From Escherichia phage AV101, in the sequence record OQ973471.1: DNA of 64,000 nucleotides; one strand, written 5' to 3'. Below are positions 9,496-56,558 of the stretch, in pieces; within the stretch, counting starts at the first letter, position 1, and each line of letters starts with the position of its first letter. The position numbers were made by a program, and so were the translations under genes. The notes beneath the pieces were generated by a model, which was not told the DNA's origin, did no database searches, and worked only from the letters and a program-made list of their open reading frames with translations.

Positions 9496-10271
9496 ACAAC
9501 CTGGTTTGTATCTATGATATGAAATCAAAGGTCGGTGGCCTGTATCGCGTTCTCGTGGATGTTGACCTGACGTTGGTCGACAGCCTCTCCCCTTGGGTGC
9601 AGTGGTTCAACGAAGAGAACATCGCCGCCGCTGCTATCGCTACGGGGGAACATAAGTCATACCAGTTCCAGCCGATTACCAAAGAGTGTTATATGTCCCA
9701 TGCTGGCGACCTGGCTATTCTGATGCGTGAACGTGCGCATCCGGCGTGGCTATACCATGAAGTCCAATTGGGGGTGCACAAACAACGTGTGCCAAGCGGT
9801 AACGATCCTATGGACTGGTGGCGTCGCCCTGACTTGTACGCCAAGATGAACCCGCTCCCCGGCGCTTACGAGTTCCTGGTAAATCTGAAGGATATCTTGC
9901 TTGAAGATTTCGACAATGTTGAATTCGTTGCGGTGTCGAAGTGCGAGCCGGAACACGAGCGCAGCAAGCGCCAGTTTGTCTACGACAAGTTCCCTGGTAT
10001 CTTCAACGGGTTTGTCAGCACCGACGAAAAGCATCTGCTGGCAGGCGATGTCCTGATTGATGACAATCCGAAGTATGTCGAGCCGTGCGGTCTGAACAAC
10101 ATCTTTGTCATCTTTGTTCCTCAGGGCAATTATGAAAAACTGGATCTTTCGAACTCGGAAGATATGCTTTATATTAAACCAGTAGAAGGTCAGAATCACT
10201 TCGACTTCCTGAATTACAATATTGTTGAAGTGGTTAACCGCCTGATTAGTCATTATCAATACGTCCGATAG
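9492..10271 (+). CDS. HAD-superfamily phosphatase, possibly a 5'(3')-deoxyribonucleotidase
   Basis: HAD motif I VDVDLTLVD (DxDxT) and motif IV VLIDDNP; start overlaps the upstream stop (ATGA). Confidence 0.5.
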   Translation: MNNLVCIYDMKSKVGGLYRVLVDVDLTLVDSLSPWVQWFNEENIAAAAIATGEHKSYQFQPITKECYMSHAGDLAILMRERAHPAWLYHEVQLGVHKQRVPSGNDPMDWWRRPDLYAKMNPLPGAYEFLVNLKDILLEDFDNVEFVAVSKCEPEHERSKRQFVYDKFPGIFNGFVSTDEKHLLAGDVLIDDNPKYVEPCGLNNIFVIFVPQGNYEKLDLSNSEDMLYIKPVEGQNHFDFLNYNIVEVVNRLISHYQYVR

Positions 10272-10280
10272 GAGGACATC

Positions 10281-10586
10281 GTGCAAGATCAGAATAAGTT
10301 CGGGGAAATCCCCGACGAGCGTTTCGGTGATAGCGACATGGATGGCGTGATTAACCATGTGAACAACTTCATTCGCCAGCAGGAGACTCCGACTCCTATC
10401 GGCGCAGCCAAGGCTCTTCATGATGTACTGGTGAAGATCGGCCAGCGCTCTGAAGCGGATGAAATCTTCTATAACTTCGACGACCAGTATAAAGTGAAGT
10501 TTGAAGAGAATGGCCGCCCACAGGTTGCTGTGTTCTGGGCACCTTGGCTGGGCGGCGTGAGCTGGCGTATTGAGGATGCTGTGTAA
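10281..10586 (+). CDS. Hypothetical protein
   Basis: GTG start with AGGAGG RBS; 101 aa. Confidence 0.45.
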   Translation: MQDQNKFGEIPDERFGDSDMDGVINHVNNFIRQQETPTPIGAAKALHDVLVKIGQRSEADEIFYNFDDQYKVKFEENGRPQVAVFWAPWLGGVSWRIEDAV

Positions 10587-11272
10587 TGCTGTCGCTCTAC
10601 CTGATCACGAATCTCGTCAATCATAAATTCTATATCGGTGTCACCTCAGAACCGGATAGGCGGTTGGCTGAGCATAAGTGTGGTCAGGGGAGCATTGCAT
10701 TACAACGAGCGTTCAAGAAATACGGTGAAGACCAGTTCAAGTTTGAAGTTCTGTTCCGAGGGAAAGATTCGGTTATCCTTCAGATAGAGTCTGAACTGGT
10801 CTGCCAGGAGATCCTTGACTCTGGGTGGTGCTACAACATGGTCGTCGGGGGTGGGAAGCCTCCATTGGCCACGCCTAATTCATCTGCAAAGAGTGCTGCA
10901 ACCCGCAAACGTTTGATCGCTGAAGGTAAGATTAAACCTCCACCAAGACTCACCCCTGAAGCACAAGCCAGAAAGGGTAAGATCATAAGCAAATTGATGT
11001 CAGAAGGGAAGATCCCCAAACCACCAAGACCTTCCTCTGAATCTCAAACGCGTGGAGGGGAAACTAGGAAGAGGCTGCATGCTCTTGGCCTGATAGACAT
11101 TGGTCCTGGCCGCGATGAAACGATTTACAAATGGCAGCACAAAGATGGTCGCATTGTTGAGTTAAGAAGATGCGATATGGAACTTCAATATGGCCTCCCT
11201 TCCGGTAATATAACGAATCTCTTGAAAGGTAGGGCTAAAACATGTCTCGGTTGGAGAATATTAAATGGCTAA
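10586..11272 (+). CDS. GIY-YIG homing endonuclease (Seg-like)
   Basis: N-terminal LYLITNLVNHKFYIGVT...RRLAEHK GIY-YIG core; C-terminal tandem basic repeats KIKPPPRLTPEAQ / KIPKPPRPSSESQ; TAATG overlap with the upstream gene. Confidence 0.65.
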   Translation: MLSLYLITNLVNHKFYIGVTSEPDRRLAEHKCGQGSIALQRAFKKYGEDQFKFEVLFRGKDSVILQIESELVCQEILDSGWCYNMVVGGGKPPLATPNSSAKSAATRKRLIAEGKIKPPPRLTPEAQARKGKIISKLMSEGKIPKPPRPSSESQTRGGETRKRLHALGLIDIGPGRDETIYKWQHKDGRIVELRRCDMELQYGLPSGNITNLLKGRAKTCLGWRILNG

Positions 11273-12182
11273 AATAATTGTAGTGAAAGGCACCTCGGCC
11301 ACGGGCAAGGGTACGAGAGTGGTTCAGTTCATCGAATGGCTCCGTACGAAGCTGGAGCCTACCGAACTGACCTACACAGTTGGTGACAAGACTCGCCCGT
11401 TTGGCTTGAAGTTCGGAGAGCTGAAGTTAATCTTCGTTGGACAGTACACCGTGTCTAACAAATCCGGCCTGGCTTCCTGGACTTCAATGGATGCAATCCA
11501 TGCTGCTACAGGCTCAGGCGATATTGCTCGTGATCTAATCAAGTGCTGGTTGGTTCAGGGATACACTCTGGTGTGCGAGGGTGAACCCCTCATGCTGTCG
11601 GACAAATGGCGTCCTGAATGGATGTTCAAGAACTATCCGATTGAATCATTGGCGCTGCTGTACTTTGCGTACCCCGACCGCTATCAGTACGATGCTCGTA
11701 TCCGTGGTCGCTCTGGTAAAGAAGCAGGGAACTCCGGCTGGTCGCGCAACGAATCTTACTCCAAGGAGTTTGAGAAGTCGAAGGCCGAAATGCTGGCGCT
11801 GGGCTTCACTGTGGCTGTTGATGATTACAGCGGACAGGATATCCTGTATAAATCACCGAATGTCAACACCCAGGAGTTCCTGACCAGCCAGCAGTCAGAG
11901 TTGGCGGTACTACCGTTCGACGCCCCGCTTTGGGTGGTGGGTAACGCGATTTGTCATCAGATACGGTCCGAACTGCGTGAAGTTAACATGGACACCAAAG
12001 ACTTCTACGCCTACTGTGAAACCAATCCGATGACCCGTGAGGTCGGCGGTGAGGATCCTTTGGCGCACAGAGTCCCTGAGAAGCCGCAGAAGGCATCCAA
12101 AACTAAAACCAAGGCGAGCGCCCAGCCAGAAGCAACGAAGGCAGCGTCGCGCTCTCTCCTTGACCTGATGAAGAAGGGGTGA
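11265..12182 (+). CDS. P-loop nucleotide/nucleoside kinase-like protein
   Basis: N-terminal IIVVKGTSATGKGT is an NMP-kinase-type P-loop (GxxxxGKGT); 305 aa; overlaps neighbours at both ends. Confidence 0.45.
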   Translation: MAKIIVVKGTSATGKGTRVVQFIEWLRTKLEPTELTYTVGDKTRPFGLKFGELKLIFVGQYTVSNKSGLASWTSMDAIHAATGSGDIARDLIKCWLVQGYTLVCEGEPLMLSDKWRPEWMFKNYPIESLALLYFAYPDRYQYDARIRGRSGKEAGNSGWSRNESYSKEFEKSKAEMLALGFTVAVDDYSGQDILYKSPNVNTQEFLTSQQSELAVLPFDAPLWVVGNAICHQIRSELREVNMDTKDFYAYCETNPMTREVGGEDPLAHRVPEKPQKASKTKTKASAQPEATKAASRSLLDLMKKG

Positions 12183-12184
12183 TC

Positions 12185-12382
12185 ATGAAACGGTTGTCTA
12201 ATTATCTGTTGTTCATCGGTCTGATTATGGCAGCTATTTCAATGTGCGTTGGCCTGGCGTATCATTTCACTTCTCTGGATTTAACGACCTCAGAGAAGTT
12301 GAATGTGACTGTGATGTACTGTATTGGCGCGGTGATGTCTATCGGCGCTGCTGGTTACAAAATATTCAAGGAACCAAAATGA
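12185..12382 (+). CDS. Small membrane protein
   Basis: 66 aa with two hydrophobic helices; ATG at 12185 with AAGGGG RBS. Confidence 0.4.
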   Translation: MKRLSNYLLFIGLIMAAISMCVGLAYHFTSLDLTTSEKLNVTVMYCIGAVMSIGAAGYKIFKEPK

Positions 12383-12756
12383 AAATTCAAATCCCTCGCG
12401 ATGCTGTAGCTATTGCGATTGACTACACCGGAAACGCCAAGCACATTACTGCCGTGCGCCTGATTCCTGAAAAGAACTGCGTCATCCCTCAGTTCCAGCT
12501 GAATGCCAATCCGTCGTCCAAAGACTTCGGCAAGTGGTTACAGGCTGCTCCGTTCCGTACCCAGACGAATGCTCAGATGTTCATCTCGGGTAAGACCCAC
12601 ACTGCAGCCCGTCTGTGGTTCGTGACCGCTGACCGTCGCTTTGTCGATATGTGGGAACGTCCGATGGGGTTCGTGAAGCCGGAAGATATTCAGCTGGCTC
12701 CTGAGCCTGAAGCTGTGGCTCCTGAAGAGGAAGCGAAAGATGCATCATTTATCTAA
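12379..12756 (+). CDS. Hypothetical protein
   Basis: ATG at 12379 overlaps the upstream stop (ATGA); 125 aa. Confidence 0.4.
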   Translation: MKIQIPRDAVAIAIDYTGNAKHITAVRLIPEKNCVIPQFQLNANPSSKDFGKWLQAAPFRTQTNAQMFISGKTHTAARLWFVTADRRFVDMWERPMGFVKPEDIQLAPEPEAVAPEEEAKDASFI

Positions 12757-13975
12757 AATGCCGACGGGCTATACGCCTCCGACTGAATGGAAGTACCCGA
12801 TTGACCTATCTGTTGACTACCGTAAACCTGAGAATCGCATGTACCTGCTCAAGGCTTGGGTGGAGGCGCTGTCCTATACAGAAGAGCACAACCAACAGAT
12901 GCGTCTGATGGACTATGCGATTGAAGTCACTGAAGGCATCAGCCTCGAACAGAAAGTCGAGCGCAAGATCTGGATGGCATTCCTGTGGGGTTGTTGCTAT
13001 AACGCTGTCGGACCGTGGACGATCTACAGTGAGTTCCCTGTGCCGCCTCAGTCTAAGGAAGAGATGCAGCGCTTCTCAGACTGGTACAACCTGAACTTTG
13101 AACGCATGCGATTCGATACCGACTGTCGCTACCGCAAGTCCAAGATGATTCCGTGTGTTCAGTCCTATATTGACTGGCTGGCTGGTCGTACTCAATATGA
13201 CGCTTTCCGTGGGATGCTGGTGTGCATCGATAAGACAGAACAATTCACCCAGCTGTGGGACACGGCGATGTCCTGGAAATACTTCGGTCGCCTGAGCGCC
13301 TGGAACTTCCTGGAAGCCCTGAACATGGTCTTCGGGAACGAATACACCATTGACGTCCCTGGCTTCATGCTGCGTGATCGTGATGGAAGCGAGTCCAACC
13401 GTAATGGCGCGGCGTTCTTGTCTAACCGTGACGATTGGGTGACTAAACACGGGAAGAAAAAGATCAACGGTTGCCCTATCACGGATGAAGAGTGTGACAT
13501 CCTTGAGGCCGACCTTGAGCAGGCGTTCCAGGATTGTGTGGCTGAGTTCGGGCACCTGACGTTCATCAACCGCCTGAACTTTGAAACCTCCGGTGCTTGT
13601 TGGCTGAAGAAATTCTTCCGACTGAAGAATACCCGTTACATCGGGTGGGACGCAGAGCGTACATGGGATGAGATCGACTACATGGAACGCGTCTGGCCTG
13701 AATACTCCTGCGCAGCGCTCTGGGAAGCCCGTTCGCTCTGGCTGCCAGATACCCTGTTGTGCGAAAAGGCTCCTGCAGGGCACGTTCCAGGCGTCCAGAA
13801 GTGGAAGATGCCTGTGTTCTTTGAGACTGGTGTTCCTCTGCATATCTGGCACCTGCAAAAGGGTACGCGCTGGGAACCATCCGAGGTATGTACGAACCTG
13901 AAGATGCCTGTGCGCAAGGTTGAGGACAAGTCGAAGTCCAGCAGCGTCAACCTCATGGCACTCTTGAAACGCTGA
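12740..13975 (+). CDS. Hypothetical protein; candidate base-modification enzyme by context only
   Basis: 411-aa ORF translationally coupled downstream of the P-loop kinase gene; no motif recognised by eye. Confidence 0.4.
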   Translation: MHHLSKMPTGYTPPTEWKYPIDLSVDYRKPENRMYLLKAWVEALSYTEEHNQQMRLMDYAIEVTEGISLEQKVERKIWMAFLWGCCYNAVGPWTIYSEFPVPPQSKEEMQRFSDWYNLNFERMRFDTDCRYRKSKMIPCVQSYIDWLAGRTQYDAFRGMLVCIDKTEQFTQLWDTAMSWKYFGRLSAWNFLEALNMVFGNEYTIDVPGFMLRDRDGSESNRNGAAFLSNRDDWVTKHGKKKINGCPITDEECDILEADLEQAFQDCVAEFGHLTFINRLNFETSGACWLKKFFRLKNTRYIGWDAERTWDEIDYMERVWPEYSCAALWEARSLWLPDTLLCEKAPAGHVPGVQKWKMPVFFETGVPLHIWHLQKGTRWEPSEVCTNLKMPVRKVEDKSKSSSVNLMALLKR

Positions 13976-14911: not shown

Positions 14912-16023
14912 TCTACCTCCTGTTTGGTGTGCCATTGGTACTGGCTATCCTGTTTGTGACCTACCACCGCAAGACCCATGAGCCGAAAGAGACTCTGATA
15001 GCGACCGCGATTGTGGTGGTGCTATCCTGTCTGATTCAGGCGGGGACTTATGCTGCGTTCTCTCTTGGTAGTTCAGGGGATGTTGAGATCCTGAACGGGT
15101 ACGTCACTGCAAAGGAGCGGAATAAGGTGAGCTGTGAGCATTCATATGAATGCAACTGCTACTACACCACATCATGCTCCGGCTCCGGCAGCAGCAAGTC
15201 CTGTACCCGCACTCGCCATTGCAGTACATGTTATGAGCATTCATATGACGTGGACTGGGATGTGTTGACGACTGTCGGTAATCTGACGATTGACCGCATT
15301 GATCGTCGCGGCCTTGGTCAGCCCCCGCGCTGGGCGCAGGTTCAGATCGGCGAACCCGCAGCCCGTGAGCATTCCTACATGAACTATGTGCTGGGTAACA
15401 AGGACTCTCTGTTCTCTCGCTCGGACCAGCAGTTTGCTGAGCGCTTCAAAGACAAGATTCCGAAGTATCCCGAAGTCTATGACTACTATCGCGTCACTCG
15501 TGTACTGAATGTGTCTGGTCTGGCGTTACCGACCACATACTGGAACGACTATCTGAATGATGTCCTGAAGAAGCTGGGCGCAGCCAAGCAGGTGAACATC
15601 GTCTGGGTTGTGACTTCCGGCCAGCCAGTTGAATACTTCCAGGGCTTGGTCTATGCTTGGGATGGTGGTAAAAAGAACGACGTTATCGTCGTGACCGACA
15701 TCAGCAAAGATCTGAAGATCAACTGGGGTAAGAGCACTTCGTTCGCTGATGGTATGCATAACCGTGAACTCCATTCTCGTAATGGCATGGCTCTCACAGG
15801 CCACGACATGGGTGTCGGTGTCATGGCTGATGTTGTCGCTAACATCACCAAAGGCTACAACCGCGTTGAGATGAAGGAAATGGAGTACCTGAAGTGGCGG
15901 GAACTCAAGACCTGGGAAGTTGTGATTGTTGTTCTACTGGGCTGTCTGCCGTTCACCGCAATTTTCATATTACAGCGAATGGAGTACAATGGTGGCCGTC
16001 GTCGTTATCCGTTTAATTTTTAA
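14908..16023 (+). CDS. Membrane protein with N- and C-terminal transmembrane segments and a Cys-rich central domain
   Basis: Hydrophobic N-terminus LLFGVPLVLAILFV and C-terminus VVIVVLLGCLPFTAIFIL; Cys cluster CEHSYECNCYYTTSC. Confidence 0.5.
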   Translation: MIYLLFGVPLVLAILFVTYHRKTHEPKETLIATAIVVVLSCLIQAGTYAAFSLGSSGDVEILNGYVTAKERNKVSCEHSYECNCYYTTSCSGSGSSKSCTRTRHCSTCYEHSYDVDWDVLTTVGNLTIDRIDRRGLGQPPRWAQVQIGEPAAREHSYMNYVLGNKDSLFSRSDQQFAERFKDKIPKYPEVYDYYRVTRVLNVSGLALPTTYWNDYLNDVLKKLGAAKQVNIVWVVTSGQPVEYFQGLVYAWDGGKKNDVIVVTDISKDLKINWGKSTSFADGMHNRELHSRNGMALTGHDMGVGVMADVVANITKGYNRVEMKEMEYLKWRELKTWEVVIVVLLGCLPFTAIFILQRMEYNGGRRRYPFNF

Positions 16024-16041
16024 TCAAAAGAGGAAGTAAGA

Positions 16042-25749: not shown

Positions 25750-26238
25750 ATGATGTTGTTAATGAGCGTTCCACAGAACAAGATGACCCCTGCAACAGAG
25801 GGTAAGAATCACTTCAACATCTACAGCCGGAGCCAGACGGAACTCGGGCGCTTCCTCTCGCATTTTACCCATCATCCAATGACTACCCATGAACATGGTG
25901 TGTTTAACTCCATGGAGGGGTACTGGTATTGGCTGAAGTATAGGGATGACAACCTGCGCCTGCTCGACGGTTATGAGGCCAAGCAATATGGACAGGGATT
26001 GGCGGCTTCCCGCGTCATTGTCCTGGACCCGTCTACCGAAGAATTCAAGCGCGATATCCTATTTGCAACTAGTATGAAACTCCAGACAATGCCTGAACGT
26101 CTGAAGATCAGATTGGCGTACAGTCGCCTACCCCTGATCCATGCATATGTTCAGAACGGGAAATACAGTTTTCAAAACTCTATGGACTATATCATTGCCC
26201 ACATTAATCGTCTCCGCATACAAGGAACTTTGAAATGA
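25750..26238 (+). CDS. NADAR (YbiA-like, DUF1768) domain protein (putative)
   Basis: FNIYSRSQTELGRFLSHF resembles the NADAR F-Y-S...F-S-N-F core; a later W/Y-rich segment roughly matches the second conserved block. From memory of E. coli YbiA. Confidence 0.45.
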   Translation: MMLLMSVPQNKMTPATEGKNHFNIYSRSQTELGRFLSHFTHHPMTTHEHGVFNSMEGYWYWLKYRDDNLRLLDGYEAKQYGQGLAASRVIVLDPSTEEFKRDILFATSMKLQTMPERLKIRLAYSRLPLIHAYVQNGKYSFQNSMDYIIAHINRLRIQGTLK

Positions 26239-26816
26239 AATTTCTACACACTATCGTCGACACTTCTTATGACTGCACTGCTCATACCCCAGACCGTTCG
26301 CCTGTGTTTGTTCTGAACAAACTAGGTGAAGAGATCTGTGAACTGTCTGATGTGTTTCATGGCATAGTATCTTCCGAGCCGTTGAATGGCGAAGTTGCTG
26401 ATGTCATTATCTCTGCTATTGACCTTCTGTACGTCATGGATTATGACGACGTCCAAATGCGCGGCTCTCTGAACAAGGCCGAAATGATCGACTCTGTCAT
26501 CAACCACATGGCGACAGTGAACGATATTTCTTCTAATCTGTTGGAAGAAGACTGGTTCCGTCTGATTGATCGTGATCCTCAAAAGCATCTGAATCTTATT
26601 CATCATTATCATGGCCGGATTATCCGATTGTGCAACCAGCCTTATCGCAGTCAAGACAGATTGGATCAACTCGTCAATGACCTAATCAAGCATGTTGCGC
26701 GCATGGGGTGTGGGGAAGGGGCGATCCGTGGATCCTCTTTGACGGCCACTCGCATTAAAGTGGAGCACGCTATTGAACACAAGGTTGAAAAGTGGCGTAG
26801 CAAATTTGGTCTATAA
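26235..26816 (+). CDS. MazG-like nucleoside triphosphate pyrophosphohydrolase
   Basis: KLGEEICELSD...EVADVIISAIDLLY is the MazG E-x-x-E / E-x-x-D metal-binding motif pair. Confidence 0.55.
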   Translation: MKFLHTIVDTSYDCTAHTPDRSPVFVLNKLGEEICELSDVFHGIVSSEPLNGEVADVIISAIDLLYVMDYDDVQMRGSLNKAEMIDSVINHMATVNDISSNLLEEDWFRLIDRDPQKHLNLIHHYHGRIIRLCNQPYRSQDRLDQLVNDLIKHVARMGCGEGAIRGSSLTATRIKVEHAIEHKVEKWRSKFGL

Positions 26817-35367: not shown

Positions 35368-35682
35368 ATGACCCCATTAAAAGAAATGTATGAGCGCCTG
35401 TCTGAACTACAGGCGAAGGAAAAGCGCTTCTCAGAAGAAGAGACAGAGCTGTCCGAGCTGAACACTTTGATCGCCACTCGTGAGAAGTACCTGCAGCGCT
35501 ACATTAATCACCCGCCGCGCATGGTAGACCGCGTCAGCACTATCATGGACCTGGATGAAGTTACTCCTGGCAAAGAAATCATTGTCAGGGAAGTCCACCA
35601 GATGGTCGCCATGGGTCAGATCTTTGGTCGTGCAGACCAAGACGACATGATCTTCCTCCTTGAAAAGAAACTGGTGATGTGA
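35368..35682 (+). CDS. Hypothetical protein
   Basis: 104-aa ORF; GAGGAAC RBS. Confidence 0.4.
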   Translation: MTPLKEMYERLSELQAKEKRFSEEETELSELNTLIATREKYLQRYINHPPRMVDRVSTIMDLDEVTPGKEIIVREVHQMVAMGQIFGRADQDDMIFLLEKKLVM

Positions 35683-36188
35683 TGGCTATCAAACCCCGTA
35701 TGTTGTTTGCGCATATGCGCTCGGCTCATGCATACGCTCTGTCCAGCTATGCACAACGCCTGAAGGTCGGCTGTGTTATCGTTGACCCGCGTGTTGACCA
35801 GCCCCTGTCTATCGGTTGGAACGGGACTGCTCCTGGCGCTCCTAATGTCTGTGAGAAGGAAGTAGACGGTCAACTGGTATCGGTGGGTGTTATCCACGCC
35901 GAGGAGAATGCTCTGAGCAAACTCCCCCAGCACACCGAAGACTGTTGTGGCCTGGTGATGTTTGTCACTCATAGTCCATGCCCAGAGTGCACCCGTCGTA
36001 TTATCGACAGTGGCAAGATCGCTAAAGTATTCTATGACCGACCATATCGTATCATAGACGGTATTATTGAAATGCTGGCTGCTGGGATTGAAGTATATCG
36101 CATGGTCGATCAGATTGTTGTAGTCCAGCATTCTGTGAAGAACGGCGAACTGGTATCCACCCCTGTTTTAGTGAACCCTGACAAATAA
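35682..36188 (+). CDS. dCMP deaminase (cytidine/deoxycytidylate deaminase family)
   Basis: Zinc-binding motifs HAEENAL and SPCPEC; about 168 aa. Confidence 0.7.
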   Translation: MAIKPRMLFAHMRSAHAYALSSYAQRLKVGCVIVDPRVDQPLSIGWNGTAPGAPNVCEKEVDGQLVSVGVIHAEENALSKLPQHTEDCCGLVMFVTHSPCPECTRRIIDSGKIAKVFYDRPYRIIDGIIEMLAAGIEVYRMVDQIVVVQHSVKNGELVSTPVLVNPDK

Positions 36189-48235: not shown

Positions 48236-49660
48236 CTAGAATTTCCAATTATTGACTGTTTGGGCTTTCTGCTCATCACTGGCAGTAGCCCCGGACTTGT
48301 TGAGGTCATGTTTGATGTGTACGTTTTCGACATATTTGGCCTCAGCCTCAGTCAGGTCCTTCTTAACTTCGTTCCAGTCCAGGTCAAACAGGATCTGTTT
48401 GTCTTGGTCCATACCAAACAGGAATGATTTCAGCTTCTGCTTGTTGGCATAACGGTTCTTGAGTATTGAGGCTCGGGCTTTCTTGACCGCCGCCAGTTCG
48501 TCAGGAGCATAGAATGCCATGATGAAGTCGGCCACCTTCGGAATACCGATAGCATCTGCCAAATCACTGATTCCACCATCAGTGCTATTCTGATTCTCAC
48601 GATTGAACTGCATACCAGTCCATACAGGGACATCAAACTCAAATCCCAGCGCACGAAACTCACGAGCCACAGACGTGTAATAGACGTTCGTGTTCTGCAT
48701 CAGGTGGGCAGGCAGGCGCGAGGAAGCAGCTTCGCCAAGATAGTCAATAACGATAACATCAGGAGCACGACCAGTTGCCTGGATGTACTCAAGGATATCG
48801 CGGCGGAATAAACCTGTGTGTCCGGTACCGGAAGGATATTCCTTGATGACGATATCACCCTTGGGCGCACCATCTTGGCGACTGCGGAGCTTCTCTATCG
48901 TTGCAATATACTCGTGCCTTGTGAGTTTCTCTAAAGACTCAAAGTCACGACGCATGATACGGGCATCAAGACGGTGTCGCCAGACGTTCTCGGCCACTTC
49001 AAGGGTGAAGACAAAGACGTTCAGCCCCTGCTCCGAGTACCCTGCGGTCAGGTCAATCAGCGTTGTGGTCTTACCTGCGTTGATCGCACCTGTTACGATG
49101 TTCAGTGTCTTCTTACCAACGCCACCACGTGTCGCCTTATTGAATATCTCAACTGCGAACGGGATCTTGGCCTCGTTGGAGTTCATGTGGTCATACTGCT
49201 CTGCCGCCATCTCCCAATAGATGTGACCGAGGTATGAATCAAACCGGATCGCCAGGGCTTCCTGCAACATGGTCGGGATGTTGTTCATCTCGTCCTTGCG
49301 CTTCTCGTCACCGTAGATGTTAACGGCGGTCTTGATTGCGTTGTGTACGGCCTTTTGCCGCGCCCAAGCCTCGGTTTCCTTCGCCAGCCACTCTTCATTG
49401 AAGGTGTTGTCGTTGATGTTCTCCAGGGCAGATACCGCCTGGTCAAACACATATTCGTTCAGCTTTGTCCGTTCAAGAATTATAGATAGTGCTTCGACAG
49501 ACGGGCGGGCATTGTACTCTGAGGTATAACTGTCAATCAGACCAAAGATGACCTTTTCGCCTTCGTTGTCAAAATAATCGGCTTTCAGGTACGGCAGGAT
49601 CTTTCTTTGGTAATCTTCATTGTAAATCAACTGTGAAAGCACGACAGATTCGAGTAACAT
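48236..49660 (-). CDS. DnaB-family replicative DNA helicase (T4 gp41-like)
   Basis: Walker A GAINAGKTT, DnaB-like C-terminal domain; 474 aa. Confidence 0.8.
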   Translation of the reverse strand: MLLESVVLSQLIYNEDYQRKILPYLKADYFDNEGEKVIFGLIDSYTSEYNARPSVEALSIILERTKLNEYVFDQAVSALENINDNTFNEEWLAKETEAWARQKAVHNAIKTAVNIYGDEKRKDEMNNIPTMLQEALAIRFDSYLGHIYWEMAAEQYDHMNSNEAKIPFAVEIFNKATRGGVGKKTLNIVTGAINAGKTTTLIDLTAGYSEQGLNVFVFTLEVAENVWRHRLDARIMRRDFESLEKLTRHEYIATIEKLRSRQDGAPKGDIVIKEYPSGTGHTGLFRRDILEYIQATGRAPDVIVIDYLGEAASSRLPAHLMQNTNVYYTSVAREFRALGFEFDVPVWTGMQFNRENQNSTDGGISDLADAIGIPKVADFIMAFYAPDELAAVKKARASILKNRYANKQKLKSFLFGMDQDKQILFDLDWNEVKKDLTEAEAKYVENVHIKHDLNKSGATASDEQKAQTVNNWKF

Positions 49661-49666
49661 TGGCCA

Positions 49667-49996
49667 CTACCCCACCAAAAATTTATTATATTCCTGAGCA
49701 TTACGCTGCATGAGGTCTACAAGGATATCCCCTGACACCTCAGTGAACAAGTCATTTTCTTTCAAATTCACAAACATCAGACGCAATGGTTTCTTCAATA
49801 TATCAGTCACGAAAGACAGGCGGGGTTCGCCGTCCACTTCGTTGATGGCCACCTTGCCGAACCGGAATTGAACACCACGGAATTTGCCAGAAGTGATCTT
49901 GATGATCGCCAGCTGTTCAGCACCAGGGTCGATGATTGTGTAGTTATTGGGGGAGTCTCCTCCCCCTCCACTGTTATTCGCTTGTGTTGATAACAT
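49667..49996 (-). CDS. Hypothetical protein
   Basis: Small ORF between UvsX and the helicase; start uncertain. Confidence 0.3.
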   Translation of the reverse strand: MLSTQANNSGGGGDSPNNYTIIDPGAEQLAIIKITSGKFRGVQFRFGKVAINEVDGEPRLSFVTDILKKPLRLMFVNLKENDLFTEVSGDILVDLMQRNAQEYNKFLVG

Positions 49997-51059
49997 GGTC
50001 CATTTGCTCCAGCATGTTCGCAGGCATAACAGTACCGTTAGAAACACCGAACATCTTCTTCACGTCATTGGCGAAGTCAACATTCTCCAGTAGCGGATAC
50101 CAGAAATCATCGCCCATCTGGCGCTTCTGATATTTCTTTTCCTTCTCGGGATCGAAACCACCCTTGGCTGTACGCACATACCAGCCGGAAGACGGCATAT
50201 CAACATAACCCAGAGCACGAGCGATCTCAAGCAGGCCGCTCCAGCGATCAATACCGCCGTTGTACAGTACCGTCACAGGGAGCTTGGCTTTCTCTTTGAC
50301 ATGGCGACCTTTCATGATGCTTATGTTGAAGTTCCAGCCCAGCAGATCTTTGTCTTCCTTCACCTGAGAACGGGTGATAAACCAGATCAAGTTGGATGAT
50401 AAGAAGCCCTGCTTGCCGCCTTTGATGTTAGGCTCGGCATACTGGTTGCCGATCTCATCGTAATAGGAGTTGATCCAAACACACACGAGATTTTTGCTGT
50501 TGATTTCAGGAGTCATGACACGCCAGAAGCTGTTGAGGGCACGGGCGCGGGTCATGTCTTGAGTGTCGTTCCCTTTGATCGCATCTTCAACTTCCTTGGT
50601 GGAGGGAAGTTGGCTGATAGAGTCGATGAAGATTATAACATGGTCGCCTTTCTTGACTTCCTGTAGGATCTGCAGCAAGCGGATCTTGGTCTGTTCAACG
50701 TTGTCGATCGGTACGTACAGGACGCGGTCCATGTCAATGCCCATAGAGGTCCAGTAATCAGCGTTGGCACCCTTTTCCGAGTCAGCAAATACACAGATAG
50801 CATCAGGGAACTTGTCCATATAAGCCTTGACGTCCACCAGACCGAACATCGTTTTGAAGGTACGGGAATCACCCACCATCATCTTGATACCGGAGATCAG
50901 GCCGCCGTCAATACGCCCAGACCATGCGATGTCGATCAGGGGAATACCAGTAGAACATATGATAGACGGTTCCAGAGCGTCTGATTGGGACAGTACTGAA
51001 GCCTGGTCGTCATGTTTCTTGGCAACCTTCAGCATGCGGTCCATTAATGAACTGGCCAT
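49974..51059 (-). CDS. uvsX: UvsX recombinase (RecA-like)
   Basis: RecA-fold core (GGLISGIKMMVGDSRTFKT... IFIDSISQL), 361 aa, adjacent to the helicase as in T4-like genomes. Confidence 0.8.
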   Translation of the reverse strand: MASSLMDRMLKVAKKHDDQASVLSQSDALEPSIICSTGIPLIDIAWSGRIDGGLISGIKMMVGDSRTFKTMFGLVDVKAYMDKFPDAICVFADSEKGANADYWTSMGIDMDRVLYVPIDNVEQTKIRLLQILQEVKKGDHVIIFIDSISQLPSTKEVEDAIKGNDTQDMTRARALNSFWRVMTPEINSKNLVCVWINSYYDEIGNQYAEPNIKGGKQGFLSSNLIWFITRSQVKEDKDLLGWNFNISIMKGRHVKEKAKLPVTVLYNGGIDRWSGLLEIARALGYVDMPSSGWYVRTAKGGFDPEKEKKYQKRQMGDDFWYPLLENVDFANDVKKMFGVSNGTVMPANMLEQMDHVINTSE

Positions 51060-51586
51060 TTCACTTCCTCTTTGTTGTTAATCGTCGTTAGTAAGTCTAC
51101 ACCCATAACCTTCTGGGACAAAATGTTAACCGCCTCTTGGATGCTCTTCAGGGACATTGTCTCAACAAGCGACGATGCGTCATTATGCCGGTCGGTTAGG
51201 TACATATTGCGCAGATTGTTGTAGTTCGTGCGGTTGATGCACGCAGTGTTCAGTGCTATATTCAGGATATACATTATCTGTTCAATGGTTACATCCTTTG
51301 GCATAGCGTGGATGTAATAGATCGAGCCTTCAAAATAGACGTCTACCAGTTCATCTGGTATCTTGATGCCACCACTGGCATACTCTTCGATCATTCTGAA
51401 CAGAGACTCTGGTTGCTCGCTGGCGATCTTATGCGTAACAGTCGCCGAAAGACCGTCGCCCGGTTTAACAGGCCTGTTGTATTCAGTAAGGAATACATTA
51501 TGTCCGCCGCCGATGATGTGCTCGGCGAATTTGGAAGATGCCTGAGCAGCGTTCTCCGCATGGTATGAAACGACGACTGTAAACAT
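51044..51586 (-). CDS. Hypothetical protein
   Basis: 180-aa ORF. Confidence 0.4.
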   Translation of the reverse strand: MFTVVVSYHAENAAQASSKFAEHIIGGGHNVFLTEYNRPVKPGDGLSATVTHKIASEQPESLFRMIEEYASGGIKIPDELVDVYFEGSIYYIHAMPKDVTIEQIMYILNIALNTACINRTNYNNLRNMYLTDRHNDASSLVETMSLKSIQEAVNILSQKVMGVDLLTTINNKEEVKWPVH

Positions 51587-52140
51587 TAGAACTCCAGGGT
51601 CAGAGGGGTTTCTGCGGACTTATCGTAATCCGCGCCACCAGCAGCACGCAGGCGATTGCGATCGTTCTTGCGTTTGTGTGCCAGTATGTAAGTCTCAATG
51701 TCGATCTCCATATAAGAACACGCAGACGACAGGAAGAACATGAGAGTCTCAACGCAAGGATCGTTCATGAATTGCCCAAGGCGGTACGTAACATTGCGAT
51801 GCCCTACAACACCCAAAGCAGGTGGGGTGAATTCGCGATTACTAAGGACTTCAAATTCTTCTTCGATCTCACCTTTGGTGCGGTCCACAAGGATGAAGCA
51901 CAACATGAAGTGTACCACGTCCACCAGTTCATAAACTGCGTTCGTATGGTCAAACCCGATGTCGTTGCCATAGACCTTCCAGTCACGGGTGGTTTCATCA
52001 AGGAACTCTGCCCACTCACGATAGATAGAGTTGATGACTGCGTTCTGACTCCATACATTCTTCCACTCTTCCCCAAAGTAGGCCACGTTAGTGGCCTTTT
52101 GGAGTTCGAGCAGGCTTTTGATATGCCCTGCTGTGATCAT
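51586..52140 (-). CDS. All-alpha NTP pyrophosphohydrolase (MazG/dUTPase-2/gp56 dCTPase-like)
   Basis: E-x-x-E / E-x-x-D pattern (IYREWAEFLDETTRDW; ELVDVVHF). Confidence 0.45.
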   Translation of the reverse strand: MITAGHIKSLLELQKATNVAYFGEEWKNVWSQNAVINSIYREWAEFLDETTRDWKVYGNDIGFDHTNAVYELVDVVHFMLCFILVDRTKGEIEEEFEVLSNREFTPPALGVVGHRNVTYRLGQFMNDPCVETLMFFLSSACSYMEIDIETYILAHKRKNDRNRLRAAGGADYDKSAETPLTLEF

Positions 52141-52706
52141 TTACGTTCTCCGTAGAATTTAACGAACGGCTCCCAACCATCAAATGGATTGAGGAATTCG
52201 TAGTCCACTTTCATTTGGTCAATGAAAGCCTCTATATCGTCCTCTATGATACCAGCACGGTCGGCCTTTGAAATACGGGTGATAGGACATTTCGTACTCA
52301 GCGCCCATTCATATTCCTGAGGGGTACGCAGATCGCTCACGATATAATGGACGTGGGGGTTCTGCTCTACCAGAGGAAGCTGGAAACGCTTGAAGAATGC
52401 CAGGAACAGATCGGGTTGTACGTAACGCAAGCCCGTATCGCTGCCTAGATGAAGCCAGATCTGCCGGGGAGTTAAGCCCTTGGGGTTATCAGGGTGCACG
52501 TAAGGAACGTCCTTCACGGCATCCTCTACCTCCGCTGGCAGCCATGGATAGATGAAGTTGGCAACCCGGCGCAGTTCATCTGAGAACGAAAGGCGCTGGA
52601 TGTCCATATCACCCTGTAGTTGGTGATAGCTGATGAGGGACTCCAAACAGAAGTCCTTGCCGGAACGCTTGCGCCCCGTAAAGAATTCAAGATTTGGGTA
52701 CATCAT
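52137..52706 (-). CDS. Deoxynucleoside monophosphate kinase (T4 gp1-like)
   Basis: P-loop FFTGRKRSGKDF compared with T4 gp1 GVKRSGKDT; second block HYIVSDLR. Confidence 0.55.
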   Translation of the reverse strand: MMYPNLEFFTGRKRSGKDFCLESLISYHQLQGDMDIQRLSFSDELRRVANFIYPWLPAEVEDAVKDVPYVHPDNPKGLTPRQIWLHLGSDTGLRYVQPDLFLAFFKRFQLPLVEQNPHVHYIVSDLRTPQEYEWALSTKCPITRISKADRAGIIEDDIEAFIDQMKVDYEFLNPFDGWEPFVKFYGERK

Positions 52707-53749
52707 ACTACACCTTCCAGGAACTTAGGATCAACGATCTTGCGGTCAACCGGAGAATGGGTGAGCGCGGTGTTCAATCCATGATCCTGAATCAGGTCCA
52801 GGTTAATGAGCTTGTTATTCAATTTGCAGTGCAGGCAGTATGCCATCTGCACAATCAGACCGCGATCCGCATCATACTCCTTCAGGAAGGCAACAACAGT
52901 TTCCCAAGGACTACCGAAGTCACAATGAACAAGCACGCCAGTGAACAGATCGCGGATATGGTTCTGGTTGGTCACGTTCGTGAAGTGGATCATGGAGTTG
53001 ATGAACCCAGCTTCTACTTTGGTGTCCTTCGTGATCTTGCCCAGCTGCTTCTGGCTGACTTCATTGTTGTAGTAATGAAGATTGTTGGAGAAGAGCTTGT
53101 ACTGGCCGACGTCAACATCCAACACCCGAGCAATCACTTCCTGAAGAATAGAGAACTCAATGAAGTTGATTGAACTCATACCCCACAGAACATCCTGTGA
53201 GCGATTGATAACCGTCAGGTTCAGGCGACCTTCAACGATGGCGAACAACAGAGCCAGGTTACACACCATGTCCTTGGTCTTTGCTTCGCCACTCTCACTG
53301 AACTTCGCCAGACCAGCATCTGAATCCAGAGCCGGATCATAGATGGTGAGGTACGCCTGGCGAGTGTTTGGATTCTTGCGCAGGCGGTTGATGACGCTAT
53401 CCAGCTGGCCATGGGCGTACAGACGCGGACCATAAGCGGCTCGCCATGTGTGGCCGTTGTCGGAAAAGTTGGCGGCGCGGGGCAACACGCGGGACAGGAA
53501 GCGAACGTCATCGCGCCCGGACAGAACCCAGAAGGTCTCGCCGATGGCGGCGATAGCCGATGAGTTACGACCTTCAACGGATAGCCAGCGGTCACGGATG
53601 TCGGCGACGGTTATGGTCACGCCATCAAGGAAGCGGGTGCTATCAGTATTGATTTCAGCATTACCAGGATCAGATTCGATCCCGAATTCACGGATAGCCA
53701 AGACAGCCTGTTTCAGCATGTCATTGTTGTTTATTGCTTTGATTTCCAT
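52703..53749 (-). CDS. Thymidylate-synthase-family enzyme, candidate dUMP hydroxymethylase
   Basis: TS-family blocks RQAYLTIYDP and MVCNLALLF...NRSQDVLWGMSSINF (catalytic Cys; Q-R-S-x-D; Asn near the TS uracil-specificity position). Confidence 0.6.
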   Translation of the reverse strand: MEIKAINNNDMLKQAVLAIREFGIESDPGNAEINTDSTRFLDGVTITVADIRDRWLSVEGRNSSAIAAIGETFWVLSGRDDVRFLSRVLPRAANFSDNGHTWRAAYGPRLYAHGQLDSVINRLRKNPNTRQAYLTIYDPALDSDAGLAKFSESGEAKTKDMVCNLALLFAIVEGRLNLTVINRSQDVLWGMSSINFIEFSILQEVIARVLDVDVGQYKLFSNNLHYYNNEVSQKQLGKITKDTKVEAGFINSMIHFTNVTNQNHIRDLFTGVLVHCDFGSPWETVVAFLKEYDADRGLIVQMAYCLHCKLNNKLINLDLIQDHGLNTALTHSPVDRKIVDPKFLEGVV

Positions 53750-54408
53750 CAGATACTCCCAAAATCACGACAGAGGAATGCCATCACAGCCTGGTCTACT
53801 GTTAGGCCGTGAGACTTCATCATACCCGCAGCCACCGTAGGGAACAAGTCTTTATGTCGTTGACGATGGTCATGAACTCTCTCCCACTTCTCGACCACCA
53901 GACTTTCATTGAAATCCACACCGCCGTTGCGTGATTTAACGCGGGTGATACACGTTTCAAGAGGAGTGTCCATAAAGAGCACAACCAATTCACGTGGTGG
54001 GCGTGTCAGGCGGGGGATCCAAGAACTCAATAATGTGGATGGAATGATACCTTCGAAAATCACATCATATTTCAAGTATTCTGGTTGGTCAGCAATAGAC
54101 AACGCGAACAACATCTGCTCAGTGTCCTTCAGGGAATCAACCCCCTTGGACTTCGACTTGTCATATTTACCGATACAGACCACGTTGAACGAAGGACAGA
54201 CAGTCAGCATGACCTTGCCGTTATGGGTCACGACATACGCCTGAGGATCCCTCTCCGCCAGCTGAGACGGCACAGTGGATTTACCGCTACCATTGGAGCC
54301 TTTGACGTAGTAGATTTGCCCTCGTGCTGGGTAGATCCCCTTTACGACGGGTGGTTTAAAGAATGTGTGGACGGGGCGCTTCATCAGCCCCTTCAGGGAG
54401 TAGGACAT
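53749..54408 (-). CDS. P-loop kinase (polynucleotide-kinase-like), candidate DNA hydroxymethyl-dU kinase
   Basis: Walker A GSNGSGKST; 219 aa; start overlaps the stop of the TS-family gene. Confidence 0.45.
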   Translation of the reverse strand: MSYSLKGLMKRPVHTFFKPPVVKGIYPARGQIYYVKGSNGSGKSTVPSQLAERDPQAYVVTHNGKVMLTVCPSFNVVCIGKYDKSKSKGVDSLKDTEQMLFALSIADQPEYLKYDVIFEGIIPSTLLSSWIPRLTRPPRELVVLFMDTPLETCITRVKSRNGGVDFNESLVVEKWERVHDHRQRHKDLFPTVAAGMMKSHGLTVDQAVMAFLCRDFGSI

Positions 54409-54483
54409 AAACTGCTCCGATAAACAAAAGGAGCTGCTATTATAGCAACCCCTTCATCTATTGAACAGTTTCTGAACTTAAAT

Positions 54484-55323
54484 TTACACAGCTTTCGCTT
54501 CAGCCAGAGCCTGTGGAAGCCATTCATTGATCGCCTTAACCAGAGACTCAGCATCAGACTCTTTGATCTTCTGACGTTTGGTGAAGGACTTGCCGTTCAC
54601 GTACAGACTGAAGCCCCAGCCACCGGAAACGATAGGCGCAACGTCGACATACGTATTGGTGCGGGCGTGAAGGTTTTCAGGGTTAGCCAGTTCGGTGACC
54701 GGGAACTGGAACCAACGCATGTCTGGGTTCACGTAGCTCAGGAACACGCCGGGGACAACACCAGCTTCAATCGCCGCCAAGACCGGACCGTGATTAGAAG
54801 CGCGAGCCACGTCAACCATTTCCTCACGTTTGGTGTGACGGCGTTTACGCTCTACCAGCGCCGCCTGCGGGGTCAGGGTCTTACCCTTCGATGCTTCTTT
54901 CAGCATAGAAGACGCCAAGGAACCGATTTTCGCGTCGGACGGCTGATTGCCTTCTTCCAGCGCCGCGTTGACTGCATCTTTAACTGCGTCTACCGGGGCG
55001 TCGGACACTACTGGGGCTTCACATGCATCGGCAGAGATCGGTGCTTCAGCATCAACGGTTTCAGCGACTTTCAGGGATACTTCAGCTTGGGCTTGCTCTT
55101 GGGCTTGCGCCAGAGCCTGCTGAGTTTCTTCCTTCTCTTCGGCGCTCAGACCTTCAATCAGTTCGAAGCCGTTGGCAGCCTGAAGAACACCTTCAACCAT
55201 ACGGCGCAGGGTAACGTTTCCGATGATCAGACCTGCTTCTTTGATTTCAGCCTGGATAGCCGCAACGTCTTTGCCTTCAATTTCAATTTTGGTTCCAGAA
55301 TCCACATGAAGAATATATGACAT
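54484..55323 (-). CDS. Hypothetical protein
   Basis: 279-aa ORF, acidic Ala-rich central region. Confidence 0.45.
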   Translation of the reverse strand: MSYILHVDSGTKIEIEGKDVAAIQAEIKEAGLIIGNVTLRRMVEGVLQAANGFELIEGLSAEEKEETQQALAQAQEQAQAEVSLKVAETVDAEAPISADACEAPVVSDAPVDAVKDAVNAALEEGNQPSDAKIGSLASSMLKEASKGKTLTPQAALVERKRRHTKREEMVDVARASNHGPVLAAIEAGVVPGVFLSYVNPDMRWFQFPVTELANPENLHARTNTYVDVAPIVSGGWGFSLYVNGKSFTKRQKIKESDAESLVKAINEWLPQALAEAKAV

Positions 55324-55512
55324 AATAAAAACCCTTTCGTTATTAAGACCGTATCCGCAGCATATTGTTGTTCTGACTGTGTAGTGAGAACATAATATAC
55401 TGCATTTTCATAGATGTAAACTACTTTTTATTGAAAAGAAAGTTAACACCTTAGTGTTATAAGGTGCGCGACCAAGCGGAGCGCGAACTTGCGTGAATAT
55501 TAACTTTCTACG

Positions 55513-55794
55513 TCAATATAGAAAAACCATTTCCGGTGGCCAACAATTTGTTAGCTCGACTTTTGCGAACCGTGGTTGGCAGTACGCATCAACCGACTCA
55601 TCAAACAGACAGTGTTCTACATTTGCAATCATCAGATCATCATCCACCACTTCAACAGAATGGACAATGATCTTGTGGTCATACGTCAGGCAACCGTCTA
55701 AATGCATGTTGTCAGCGCGGAGGTGTTGCATGATGAAATACTCTATGATCGACTCAAGGACAGTCGTCAGCTTCAGATAACGTTTCATACACAC
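55513..55794 (-). CDS. Hypothetical protein
   Basis: 93-aa ORF. Confidence 0.35.
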   Translation of the reverse strand: MCMKRYLKLTTVLESIIEYFIMQHLRADNMHLDGCLTYDHKIIVHSVEVVDDDLMIANVEHCLFDESVDAYCQPRFAKVELTNCWPPEMVFLY

Positions 55795-55808
55795 CTCTCA
55801 CAGTGGAG

Positions 55809-56558
55809 TTATTTGGACAGATAGAAGTTTGGAACTTCAGGGAAATGCTCTGGTAGATATCCCACCAGAACATCCTGTTTCACCTTCCCTTCGATATCTT
55901 CGCGGATACGACGAATCACATCTTCCTGTTGTTCTGCTGCCATCACTTCTTCCATGGCTGAGTACAAGTTTTCTAGAATGACACCTACGTAGTTGTGGAT
56001 GGCACGACAGGAGTTCTGATCATACTCCATATCCGGATGAATCGCCAGGTCGACCTGATCACGCCCTACCAGCAGATGTCCAGACACCAGATTTATCGGG
56101 TATTTGAATACTTCACTAGATTTGACAGCAACTCCGTCGGCTTGCTCCAGCAGGAATTCGGTTTCAGAGAAGCGTTCAAGTAGTTCCGATGGGAATACCA
56201 TATCGAGATTCTGACGCTTGCGACCAAAGAAGTATAGACAATGCGCCAGCTTCAGGCAAGCCTCTGTCGCCATCTTCATATGCGCTTTGGCATGTTCATA
56301 TCCAGCGATCACATCACGGACATAATCGTACAGGTCGGCATGACCAAAACGAATGTCTTCGCTGAACTGAATTGCGGTTTCGCTGTCTTCTTTCAGACCC
56401 AGCACGTCGAAGATATTGTGTTCACGGACAGATCTGCCGTTTCGATCGAAACCCAGAACGCAACCGACTTCGAATCCACTCTTTTCAAAATTTGGGAGTT
56501 TCATATCAAGGCGAGCTGGGGTAAACTCTAACCCGAACATACGATAAATTTGTGACAT
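55809..56558 (-). CDS. Hypothetical protein
   Basis: 249-aa ORF. Confidence 0.45.
   Translation of the reverse strand: MSQIYRMFGLEFTPARLDMKLPNFEKSGFEVGCVLGFDRNGRSVREHNIFDVLGLKEDSETAIQFSEDIRFGHADLYDYVRDVIAGYEHAKAHMKMATEACLKLAHCLYFFGRKRQNLDMVFPSELLERFSETEFLLEQADGVAVKSSEVFKYPINLVSGHLLVGRDQVDLAIHPDMEYDQNSCRAIHNYVGVILENLYSAMEEVMAAEQQEDVIRRIREDIEGKVKQDVLVGYLPEHFPEVPNFYLSK

Follow-up and report, generated by a model that had tools for sequence, protein, structure and literature searches.

A predicted dUMP hydroxymethylase and 5-hydroxymethyl-dU DNA kinase as a gene pair for ViI-type thymidine hypermodification in an Aglimvirinae phage

Does a phage that carries a thymidylate synthase (TS) homologue next to a P-loop kinase simply make thymidine, or does it replace it? 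The question is raised by two minus-strand open reading frames of Escherichia phage AV101, one of 219 aa at 53749..54408 and one of 348 aa at 52703..53749, in a stretch of 64,000 nucleotides that was analysed as a whole (the window). A preliminary description had read them as the core of a thymidine-hypermodification pathway and had reported that the TS-like start overlaps the kinase stop; the open reading frame listing reproduces the limits of both frames exactly, and the overlap is one base common to the stop and the start in TGATG (GGG AGT ATC TGA / ATG GAA). Chance open reading frames are excluded for both, because the kinase matches PF18748 at E 1.6e-108, and the TS-like protein matches PF00303 at E 1.5e-15 and has 116 homologues at E <= 1e-5. 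Judged from its sequence, the window is that of a ViI-like phage of the Aglimvirinae (Ackermannviridae), with a nucleotide identity of 97.3% to Escherichia phage A221, itself a member of the Aglimvirinae, and of about 91% to SKML-39/Ag3. A scan of 49500..56000 for promoters and terminators gave counts no higher than in shuffled sequence.

The thymidine hypermodification pathway of the Ackermannviridae is already known from work published in 2011-2021. In phage CBA120 no incorporation of 3H-thymidine was seen, and its TS, like those of ViI and Ag3, falls in a cluster with dUMP hydroxymethylases (PMC3184105); the gene pair itself has been noted in Ag3 (2011), PP35 (2019) and SW16-7 (2023), and Lee et al. 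(2018, PNAS; 2021, NAR, PMC8989533) elucidated the pathway in Salmonella phage ViI (Vi01), together with the enzymes and the product. With high confidence, we take the two genes described here to encode the first committed pre-replicative and the first post-replicative enzyme of a ViI-type pathway in an Aglimvirinae phage.

The 348-aa protein is best described as a putative dUMP hydroxymethylase of the TS superfamily (52703..53749, minus strand) with a C-terminal helical domain of ~110 aa, a reading that draws on PF00303, SPO1 gp29, the AF2 model and MilA. Although the Pfam gathering score of PF00303 is passed, all seven NCBIfam TS equivalog models stay below their cut-offs (16-57 bits against 108-427), the top score being 56.6 bits against a cut-off of 327. 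The dUMP hydroxymethylase gp29 of Bacillus phage SPO1 scores 110 bits (E 5e-31, 34% over 204 aa), and E. coli ThyA half of that, 55 bits. With Vi01_060c of ViI, annotated 'thyA', the protein shares 75% identity, distributed unevenly over a core at 86% and the C-terminal ~110 aa at 48.5%; against SPO1 gp29 the same C-terminal ~110 residues are unalignable. Both Vi01_060c and SPO1 gp29 share with it the sequence FSD(D/N)G where TS has its W-D-E-W block, C-N after the nucleophile (C-H in TS), R-Q (R-R in TS), N-R-S-x-D and Asn195.

The likeness to E. coli ThyA, at 21% identity, extends to the core fold, the Cys nucleophile and a set of aligned residues: Glu71, Tyr106, Arg130, Cys163, Arg183 and Ser184 correspond to Glu58, Tyr94, Arg126, Cys146, Arg166 and Ser167 of ThyA, and Asp186, Gly190, Asn195, His225 and Tyr227 to its Asp169, Gly173, Asn177, His207 and Tyr209. 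Cys163, Arg183, Asp186 and Asn195 are invariant among 30 homologues. The TS blocks claimed in the preliminary description hold for the catalytic Cys (Cys163), the uracil-type Asn (Asn195) and R-S-x-D (R183-S184-Q185-D186), but not for Q-R-S-x-D as a whole: the block reads N-R-S-Q-D, with Asn182 at the position of E. coli Gln165. Further differences from ThyA are the change of Arg127 to Gln and a folate site with no Trp at the Trp80 position, Phe95 for Trp83 and Asn164 for His147; ThyA residues ~220-264, the C-terminal lid, have no counterpart in the alignment and are replaced by an unrelated domain. In TS, Trp80/Trp83, His147 and the C-terminal lid have a role in hydride transfer. The dCMP hydroxymethylase gp42 of T4 belongs to the same superfamily and shares the nucleotide-level hydration chemistry, but it is cytosine-specific with Asp179, has 246 aa and lacks the C-terminal domain. 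It gave no significant BLASTP match to the TS-like protein, and a dCMP hydroxymethylase was rejected on this ground and on the specificity position, which is Asn and not Asp. Searches of the window by tblastn with ThyA, T4 gp42 and SPO1 gp29 lead to one locus, and no second ThyA-type gene was found there.

The structure prediction that the preliminary description had proposed is in line with this picture. The AF2 model (pLDDT 93.6) matches TS folds, and its top PDB match over the full length, with 347 columns and TM 0.74/0.80, is MilA, the CMP 5-hydroxymethylase of Streptomyces rimofaciens (PDB 5jnh, 5b6d), which is also the top PDB sequence match (E 8e-18). The match extends over the helical C-terminal domain, which is absent from classical TS; MilA differs in its identity of about 21%, its CMP substrate and the Asp at the base-specificity position, where Asn195 stands here. 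The searched PDB copy held no solved structure of a dUMP hydroxymethylase. An ordinary TS was rejected on the failed NCBIfam cut-offs, the absence of Trp80, of His147 and of the C-terminal lid, and the full-length MilA-like fold, so that both profile and active-site comparison bear out the dUMP hydroxymethylase proposed from the first reading, with SPO1 gp29 outscoring ThyA and Asn195 kept. From homology, the missing TS features and pathway logic, we infer that the 348-aa protein would act as a dUMP hydroxymethylase. Our literature search returned no report in which the TS homologue of a ViI-like phage was assayed for activity.

The 219-aa protein (53749..54408, minus strand) is well supported, by sequence comparison, as a 5-hydroxymethyl-dU (5-hmdU) DNA kinase (5-HMUDK, clade 1) and ortholog of ViI gp67, as had been proposed. 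It matches Pfam PF18748 (HMUDK_HMUD1) at 361.1 bits (cut-off 27) and over profile positions 1-195 of 196, has its Walker A P-loop GSNGSGKST at residues 37-45, and is syntenic with and 88% identical across 219 aa to gp67 (YP_004327432), an enzyme that was shown in vitro to phosphorylate 5-hmdU residues in DNA (Lee et al. 2021, PMC8989533). The two share the P-loop, the PF18748 match and a place directly upstream of the TS homologue with overlapping stop and start, and differ by point substitutions only; gp67 comes from the Cvivirinae, and the present kinase, known here from sequence, from the Aglimvirinae. Genes for 5-HMUDK co-associate with those for dUMP hydroxymethylases and aGPT-Pplase/ADDT transferases (PMC5889632), and here the kinase adjoins the TS homologue, with an ADDT transferase in the window at 12740..13975. 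A grouping with polynucleotide or RNA-repair kinases, raised earlier as the outcome that would count against this assignment, did not appear: AAA_33 reaches 20.1 bits, under its cut-off of 27, and covers the P-loop alone, and no PNK is among the PDB sequence matches at E <= 1, so PNK and RNA-repair kinase were rejected. The label 'terminase small subunit' (RefSeq, phrog_800) was likewise rejected as a propagated mislabel, in view of the kinase activity of gp67 and of a separate small terminase gene in ViI, Vi01_162c, adjoining the large terminase. The kinase annotation in the closest genome omits the P-loop.

Three further genes for the post-replicative part of the pathway lie in the same window; the preliminary description does not mention them. 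A second 5-hmdU DNA kinase (HMUD2) is encoded at 11265..12182 (plus strand; PF18747 E 4.8e-157; 85% identity to YP_004327565), the ortholog of ViI gp243, which phosphorylates 5-hmdU DNA (PMC8989533). It is followed at 12740..13975 (plus strand) by an amino acid:DNA transferase (aGPT-Pplase2), the ortholog of the serine:DNA transferase gp247 of ViI (PF18724 ADDT E 4.5e-60; 90% to YP_004327568), with Cys conserved at 10 of 11 positions; a PDB sequence search with it gave no matches. The gene at 2300..3493 (plus strand) encodes the ortholog of gp226, a PLP-dependent decarboxylase that converts O-SerT to 5-NeOmdU (92% identity to YP_004327553). Its match to PF00291 (E 4.9e-7, 29.8 bits) lies under the gathering cut-off of 35, and Lys65, in an identical context, takes the place of Lys92, the residue predicted to form the aldimine in gp226. 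In ViI, gp247 transfers serine and gp226 decarboxylates the product to 5-NeOmdU (PMC8989533), and 5-NeOmdU was reconstituted with five ViI gene products (PMC5889632). For the fifth of these genes, gp160 (aGPT-Pplase1), tblastn of the window returned nothing below E = 1; it lies outside the window, and the PP35 and SW16-7 papers report it as conserved among relatives, at another place in the genome.

On the pre-replicative side, the dNMP kinase, the two NTP pyrophosphatases and the dCMP deaminase listed in the preliminary description were all recovered. The hydroxymethylase stop overlaps the start of the dNMP kinase (52137..52706, minus strand; phrog_139 E 1.8e-47; 91% identity to ViI 'dnk'), a probable 5-hmdUMP kinase, as ATGA, and ATGA also joins this gene to the next, an all-alpha dUTPase_2-type NTP pyrophosphohydrolase at 51586..52140 (minus strand; PF08761 E 8.9e-9; phrog_173 E 3.2e-40; 61% to ViI Vi01_058c). 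The latter would be a dUTPase and possibly a dTTPase too, as was proposed for CBA120 (PMC3184105). A dCMP deaminase at 35679..36188 (plus strand; PF00383 E 4.2e-16; 64% identity to that of ViI) would serve dUMP supply. The MazG-like pyrophosphatase at 26235..26816 (plus strand; phrog_1247 E 1.6e-35; 51% identity to ViI Vi01_011), which has no Pfam match, may take part as well. By analogy with hmU phages, an NT5C-like 5'(3')-deoxyribonucleotidase at 9492..10271 (plus strand; PF06941 E 1.2e-8; 76% identity to ViI orf239) is a candidate dTMPase; the logic of pool depletion is laid out in PMC8989533. The phage DNA polymerase at 6092..9091 (plus strand), 87% identical to that of ViI across 997 aa, would incorporate 5-hmdUTP.

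Taken together, gene identities, orthology, conserved catalytic residues and fold are established by the present analysis, and they can be arranged into the following scheme. The dCMP deaminase and the NTP pyrophosphatases would supply dUMP, whose C6 would be attacked by Cys163 of the TS homologue; after transfer of a methylene from methylene-tetrahydrofolate, water rather than hydride would add to the exocyclic methylene, giving 5-hmdUMP. The translationally coupled dNMP kinase and the host NDP kinase would then make 5-hmdUTP, which would enter DNA via the phage polymerase. On DNA, the 219-aa kinase and the second kinase (11265..12182) would phosphorylate the 5-hydroxymethyl group to 5-PmdU, the transferase would swap the phosphate for the side-chain oxygen of L-serine, and the PLP enzyme would decarboxylate the product to 5-(2-aminoethoxy)methyl-dU (5-NeOmdU). 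Part of the thymidine would thereby be replaced, and the modified DNA would resist many restriction enzymes. For the ViI orthologues, the literature demonstrates the activities of kinases, transferase and decarboxylase as well as 5-NeOmdU as the product; by analogy, the end product in the phage studied here is probably 5-NeOmdU. The literature search found no nucleoside analysis of the DNA of any Aglimvirinae phage, and the PP35 paper describes the structure of the modification as 'yet to be determined'.

Public annotation would suggest a simpler story, in which an ordinary TS sits beside a nucleotide kinase or a small terminase and the phage contains canonical thymidine. GenBank and RefSeq mostly label the first gene 'thymidylate synthase' and the second 'terminase small subunit', 'thymidylate kinase' or 'hypothetical protein', with phrog_800 also reading 'terminase small subunit', and PF00303 does reach its gathering score. 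Yet the TS equivalog models fail badly, the ThyA residues and lid named above are missing, the second protein is a full-length HMUDK orthologous to a demonstrated 5-hmdU DNA kinase, ViI has a small terminase of its own beside the large one, and 5-NeOmdU is present in the DNA of ViI, CBA120 and phiHS2; this account is scarcely credible.

Somewhat less implausible, though still very improbable, is a pathway that ends at 5-hmdU, which is the situation in SPO1 and was the initial proposal for CBA120 (2011), with the kinase in another role. Kutter et al. (2011, PMC3184105) considered further modification unlikely from restriction patterns, and the end product of the Aglimvirinae is a prediction from their genes; against this stand the intact transferase, PLP decarboxylase and both kinases in the window (85-92% identity, catalytic Lys and Cys conserved) and the later finding that CBA120 carries 5-NeOmdU (review PMC11721090). 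A slim chance, a little above the last, attaches to the same machinery yielding a different end product, through another nucleophile used by the transferase, or a modified fraction far from the ~40% of ViI. The extent of modification does vary, from about 40% in ViI to 16.4% in phiHS2, transferases of this family use glycine, serine or putrescine depending on the phage (PMC8989533), and the hydroxymethylase has diverged from that of ViI more in its C-terminal domain than in its core. A change of transferase substrate is nevertheless unlikely, because the transferase and the decarboxylase are so close to the ViI enzymes (90% and 92% identity).

The ViI-type reading of the gene pair leaves room for differences between lineages. 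We speculate, as a long shot, that the Aglimvirinae pathway may share its parts with that of ViI and yet have a different outcome: the fast-evolving C-terminal domain of the hydroxymethylase (48.5% identity against 86% in the core) and the two non-redundant DNA kinases could determine, for each lineage, how far modification goes or in which sequence pattern it occurs, or could couple the enzyme to the dNTP-synthesising complex of the phage. Public records mislabel the gene pair as 'thymidylate synthase', 'terminase small subunit', 'guanylate kinase' or 'hypothetical protein'; in therapy, restriction mapping and nanopore sequencing with such phages, modified thymidine is to be expected.

Two minus-strand open reading frames, encoding a thymidylate synthase (TS)-like protein of 348 aa (52703..53749) and a kinase of 219 aa (53749..54408), have in the ORF listing exactly the limits assigned to them in the preliminary description, and the proposed overlap of kinase stop and TS-like start is a single shared base (TGATG). 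The pair is confirmed as observed, and its reading as a dUMP hydroxymethylase and a 5-hmdU DNA kinase is supported. The coupling extends from the TS-like gene through ATGA overlaps to a dNMP kinase (52137..52706) and from there to a dUTPase_2-type pyrophosphohydrolase (51586..52140), then through TAATG to a gene for an ACT-like protein, which overlaps a UvsX-like recombinase gene at the far end of the run. This 180-aa "phage ACT-like domain" protein (51044..51586, minus strand; PF24021, E 2.6e-79) is thus coupled to nucleotide-metabolism genes; such a fold would be appropriate to a pathway regulator that senses small molecules. The gap separating the 279-aa gene upstream from the start of the kinase contains a 13-pair hairpin with a T-rich tract behind it (54427..54455, minus strand), which ends about 18 nt before the kinase ATG and has TATAAT within its loop region; terminator-like sites around it are no more numerous regionally than in shuffled sequence.

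The kinase carries the predicted P-loop, GSNGSGKST, at residues 37-45, and matches Pfam PF18748 ("HMUDK_HMUD1, 5-hmdU DNA kinase") over its full length (E 1.6e-108; 361 bits, cut-off 27). Over 219 residues it shares 88% identity with YP_004327432 of Salmonella phage ViI, listed as "gp67" in Table 1 by Lee et al. 2021 (PMC8989533). There, gp67, the second ViI kinase (gp243) and the M6, phiW-14 and SP10 enzymes each turned 5-hmdU in DNA into a phosphorylated nucleotide of 418 u, with 32P moving from ATP to DNA. The refuting case named in the preliminary description, a place among repair kinases acting on RNA or polynucleotides, does not arise, because the generic AAA_33 match falls under its cut-off and covers the P-loop only, and no polynucleotide kinase is found among the PDB sequence matches at E <= 1; a repair kinase is rejected on these grounds, and the assignment as a 5-hmdU DNA kinase holds.

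Database labels for these kinases are misleading. RefSeq and phrog_800 name the 5-hmdU DNA kinase (Vi01_061c in ViI) "terminase small subunit", and the second kinase (11265..12182; Vi01_196) is named "guanylate kinase" (phrog_4409); both are propagated mislabels, and ViI has a separately annotated small terminase, Vi01_162c, beside the large one. In the closest genome, that of Escherichia phage A221, the equivalent CDS (ON862890, 91093..91617) is labelled "hypothetical protein" and has been given an internal GTG as its start, 45 codons further downstream, so that the Walker A motif is lost; the frame upstream of that GTG is open and the same as the N-terminus of the kinase described here.

Family scores set the TS-like protein apart from ordinary thymidylate synthases. 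PF00303 covers only residues 67-235 (E 1.5e-15), all seven NCBIfam thymidylate-synthase equivalog models score far under their cut-offs (best 56.6 bits against 327), and in BLASTP the annotated dUMP hydroxymethylase SPO1 gp29 (110 bits, 34% over 204 aa) exceeds E. coli ThyA (55 bits, 21%), with nothing significant to T4 gp42. These scores support a dUMP hydroxymethylase, whose activity is predicted. In an alignment of eight sequences, ThyA E58, Y94, R126, C146, R166, S167, D169, G173, N177, H207 and Y209 correspond to E71, Y106, R130, C163, R183, S184, D186, G190, N195, H225 and Y227, respectively, and C163, R183, D186 and N195 are invariant in 30 homologues with identity down to 24%; as in the preliminary description, the protein therefore possesses the nucleophile, a dUMP site and an Asn of the uracil type. 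The proposed Q-R-S-x-D block stands in its R-S-x-D part, whereas the leading Q (ThyA Q165) is N182, giving N-R-S-Q-D. Further departures from ThyA are N164 for H147, Q131 for R127, the lack of a counterpart to the C-terminal lid, and, in place of Trp80, a conserved F-S-D-(D/N)-G block that SPO1 gp29 also has. In TS, Trp80 and the C-terminus keep solvent from the exocyclic-methylene intermediate and set the folate in place for hydride transfer. Their absence fits a reaction in which hydration would replace reduction.

The structural comparison points in a similar direction. A confident AlphaFold2 model built from a 30-sequence alignment (mean pLDDT 93.6, pTM 0.93) has as its top Foldseek match in the PDB the CMP 5-hydroxymethylase MilA (5jnh, 5b6d, 5jp9; E 3e-19), with TM 0.74/0.80 over 347 columns, so that the helical C-terminal domain is included, whereas with classical thymidylate synthases the alignment reaches only about 240-270 columns (query-normalised TM around 0.52). 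MilA is also the best PDB sequence match (E 8e-18; the TS matches lie at 1e-8 to 1e-6); no solved dUMP hydroxymethylase is among the PDB matches. The top BFVD match is a homologue from Aeromonas phage phiA8-29, also of the Ackermannviridae. The ViI homologue is 86% identical in the catalytic core (residues 1-240) but only 48.5% in the C-terminal domain.

The pre-replicative helpers named in the preliminary description are all located: a dCMP deaminase (35679..36188), a MazG-like protein (26235..26816), the pyrophosphohydrolase and the dNMP kinase. Genes for post-replicative enzymes, which it had overlooked, lie near that of the DNA polymerase (6092..9091, 87% identity to the ViI polymerase): a PLP enzyme (2300..3493; PF00291, below cut-off; 92% identity to the decarboxylase gp226), whose Lys65 corresponds to the conserved predicted aldimine Lys92 of gp226; an HMUD2 kinase (11265..12182; PF18747, E 4.8e-157; 85% to gp243); and an amino acid:DNA transferase (12740..13975; PF18724, E 4.5e-60; 90% to gp247), in which 10 of 11 Cys are conserved. 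A candidate dTMPase, proposed by analogy with hmU phages, is an NT5C-like deoxyribonucleotidase (9492..10271). No match to the fifth ViI gene, gp160 (aGPT-Pplase1), occurs in the window; the PP35 and SW16-7 papers place it in another part of the genome in relatives.

Together, these enzymes would supply dUMP by dCMP deamination and dUTP hydrolysis, hydroxymethylate it with the TS homologue, raise 5-hmdUMP to the triphosphate with the dNMP kinase and host NDP kinase, and incorporate it through the phage polymerase. The two kinases would then phosphorylate the hydroxymethyl group on DNA, the transferase would form a covalent Cys-C6 adduct from which phosphate leaves and serine hydroxyl adds to the exocyclic methylene, and the PLP enzyme would remove CO2 to yield 5-(2-aminoethoxy)methyl-dU (5-NeOmdU). 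The steps from phosphorylation onwards have been demonstrated with the ViI orthologues (PMC8989533). For all ViI-like phages we infer the dUMP hydroxymethylation, an inference supported by the failure of CBA120 to incorporate 3H-thymidine (PMC3184105). 5-NeOmdU makes up about 40% of T in ViI and CBA120 (2024 review, PMC11721090); in phiHS2 it is 16.4%.

The gene order parallels that of ViI, where the equivalent pair is Vi01_061c / Vi01_060c. Megablast of 51500..55500 against a phage collection matched 269 records in all, with A221 (Ackermannviridae, Aglimvirinae) at 97.3% identity with the query fully covered and SKML-39, Ag3 and MK-13 at about 91%. Identity to A221 is 92.6% at 9400..12300, around the second kinase, against the 97.3% at the TS/kinase pair, which suggests mosaicism among close relatives. 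Immediately upstream of the second kinase, overlapping its start, is a gene for a 228-aa GIY-YIG (SegD-like) homing endonuclease (10586..11272, plus strand), absent from ViI at this junction; it looks like a mobile insertion because its presence among relatives is patchy (A221, Ag3, ChubbyThor and XF4, not SKML-39, MK-13, EspM4VN or LHE287). The ViI QueC-like gene (Vi01_023; ViI 15375..16037) has no tblastn match anywhere in the window, although its surroundings, from dexA through the dCMP deaminase gene, keep their synteny. Four tRNA genes (Met-CAT, Asn-GTT, Tyr-GTA, Ser-GCT) cluster at 230..1203 (plus strand).

Neither the pair nor the pathway is new. Kutter et al. 2011 (PMC3184105) grouped the "TS" of CBA120, ViI and Ag3 with dUMP hydroxymethylases, and Lee et al. 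2018 (PMC5889632) described the co-association of 5-HMUDK with dUMP hydroxymethyltransferase. According to the PP35 paper, conservation of ORF43 (hydroxymethyltransferase) and ORF44 (kinase) extends to all Ackermannviridae; the SW16-7 paper gives the same set of five genes, and the 2024 review (PMC11721090) states that their conservation is family-wide. SW16-7 itself is about 90% identical over the TS/kinase locus. The only gap found by literature search was direct chemistry for the subfamily Aglimvirinae. The remaining value of the locus lies in the correction of annotation and in the enzymology of the hydroxymethylase, whose activity is predicted.
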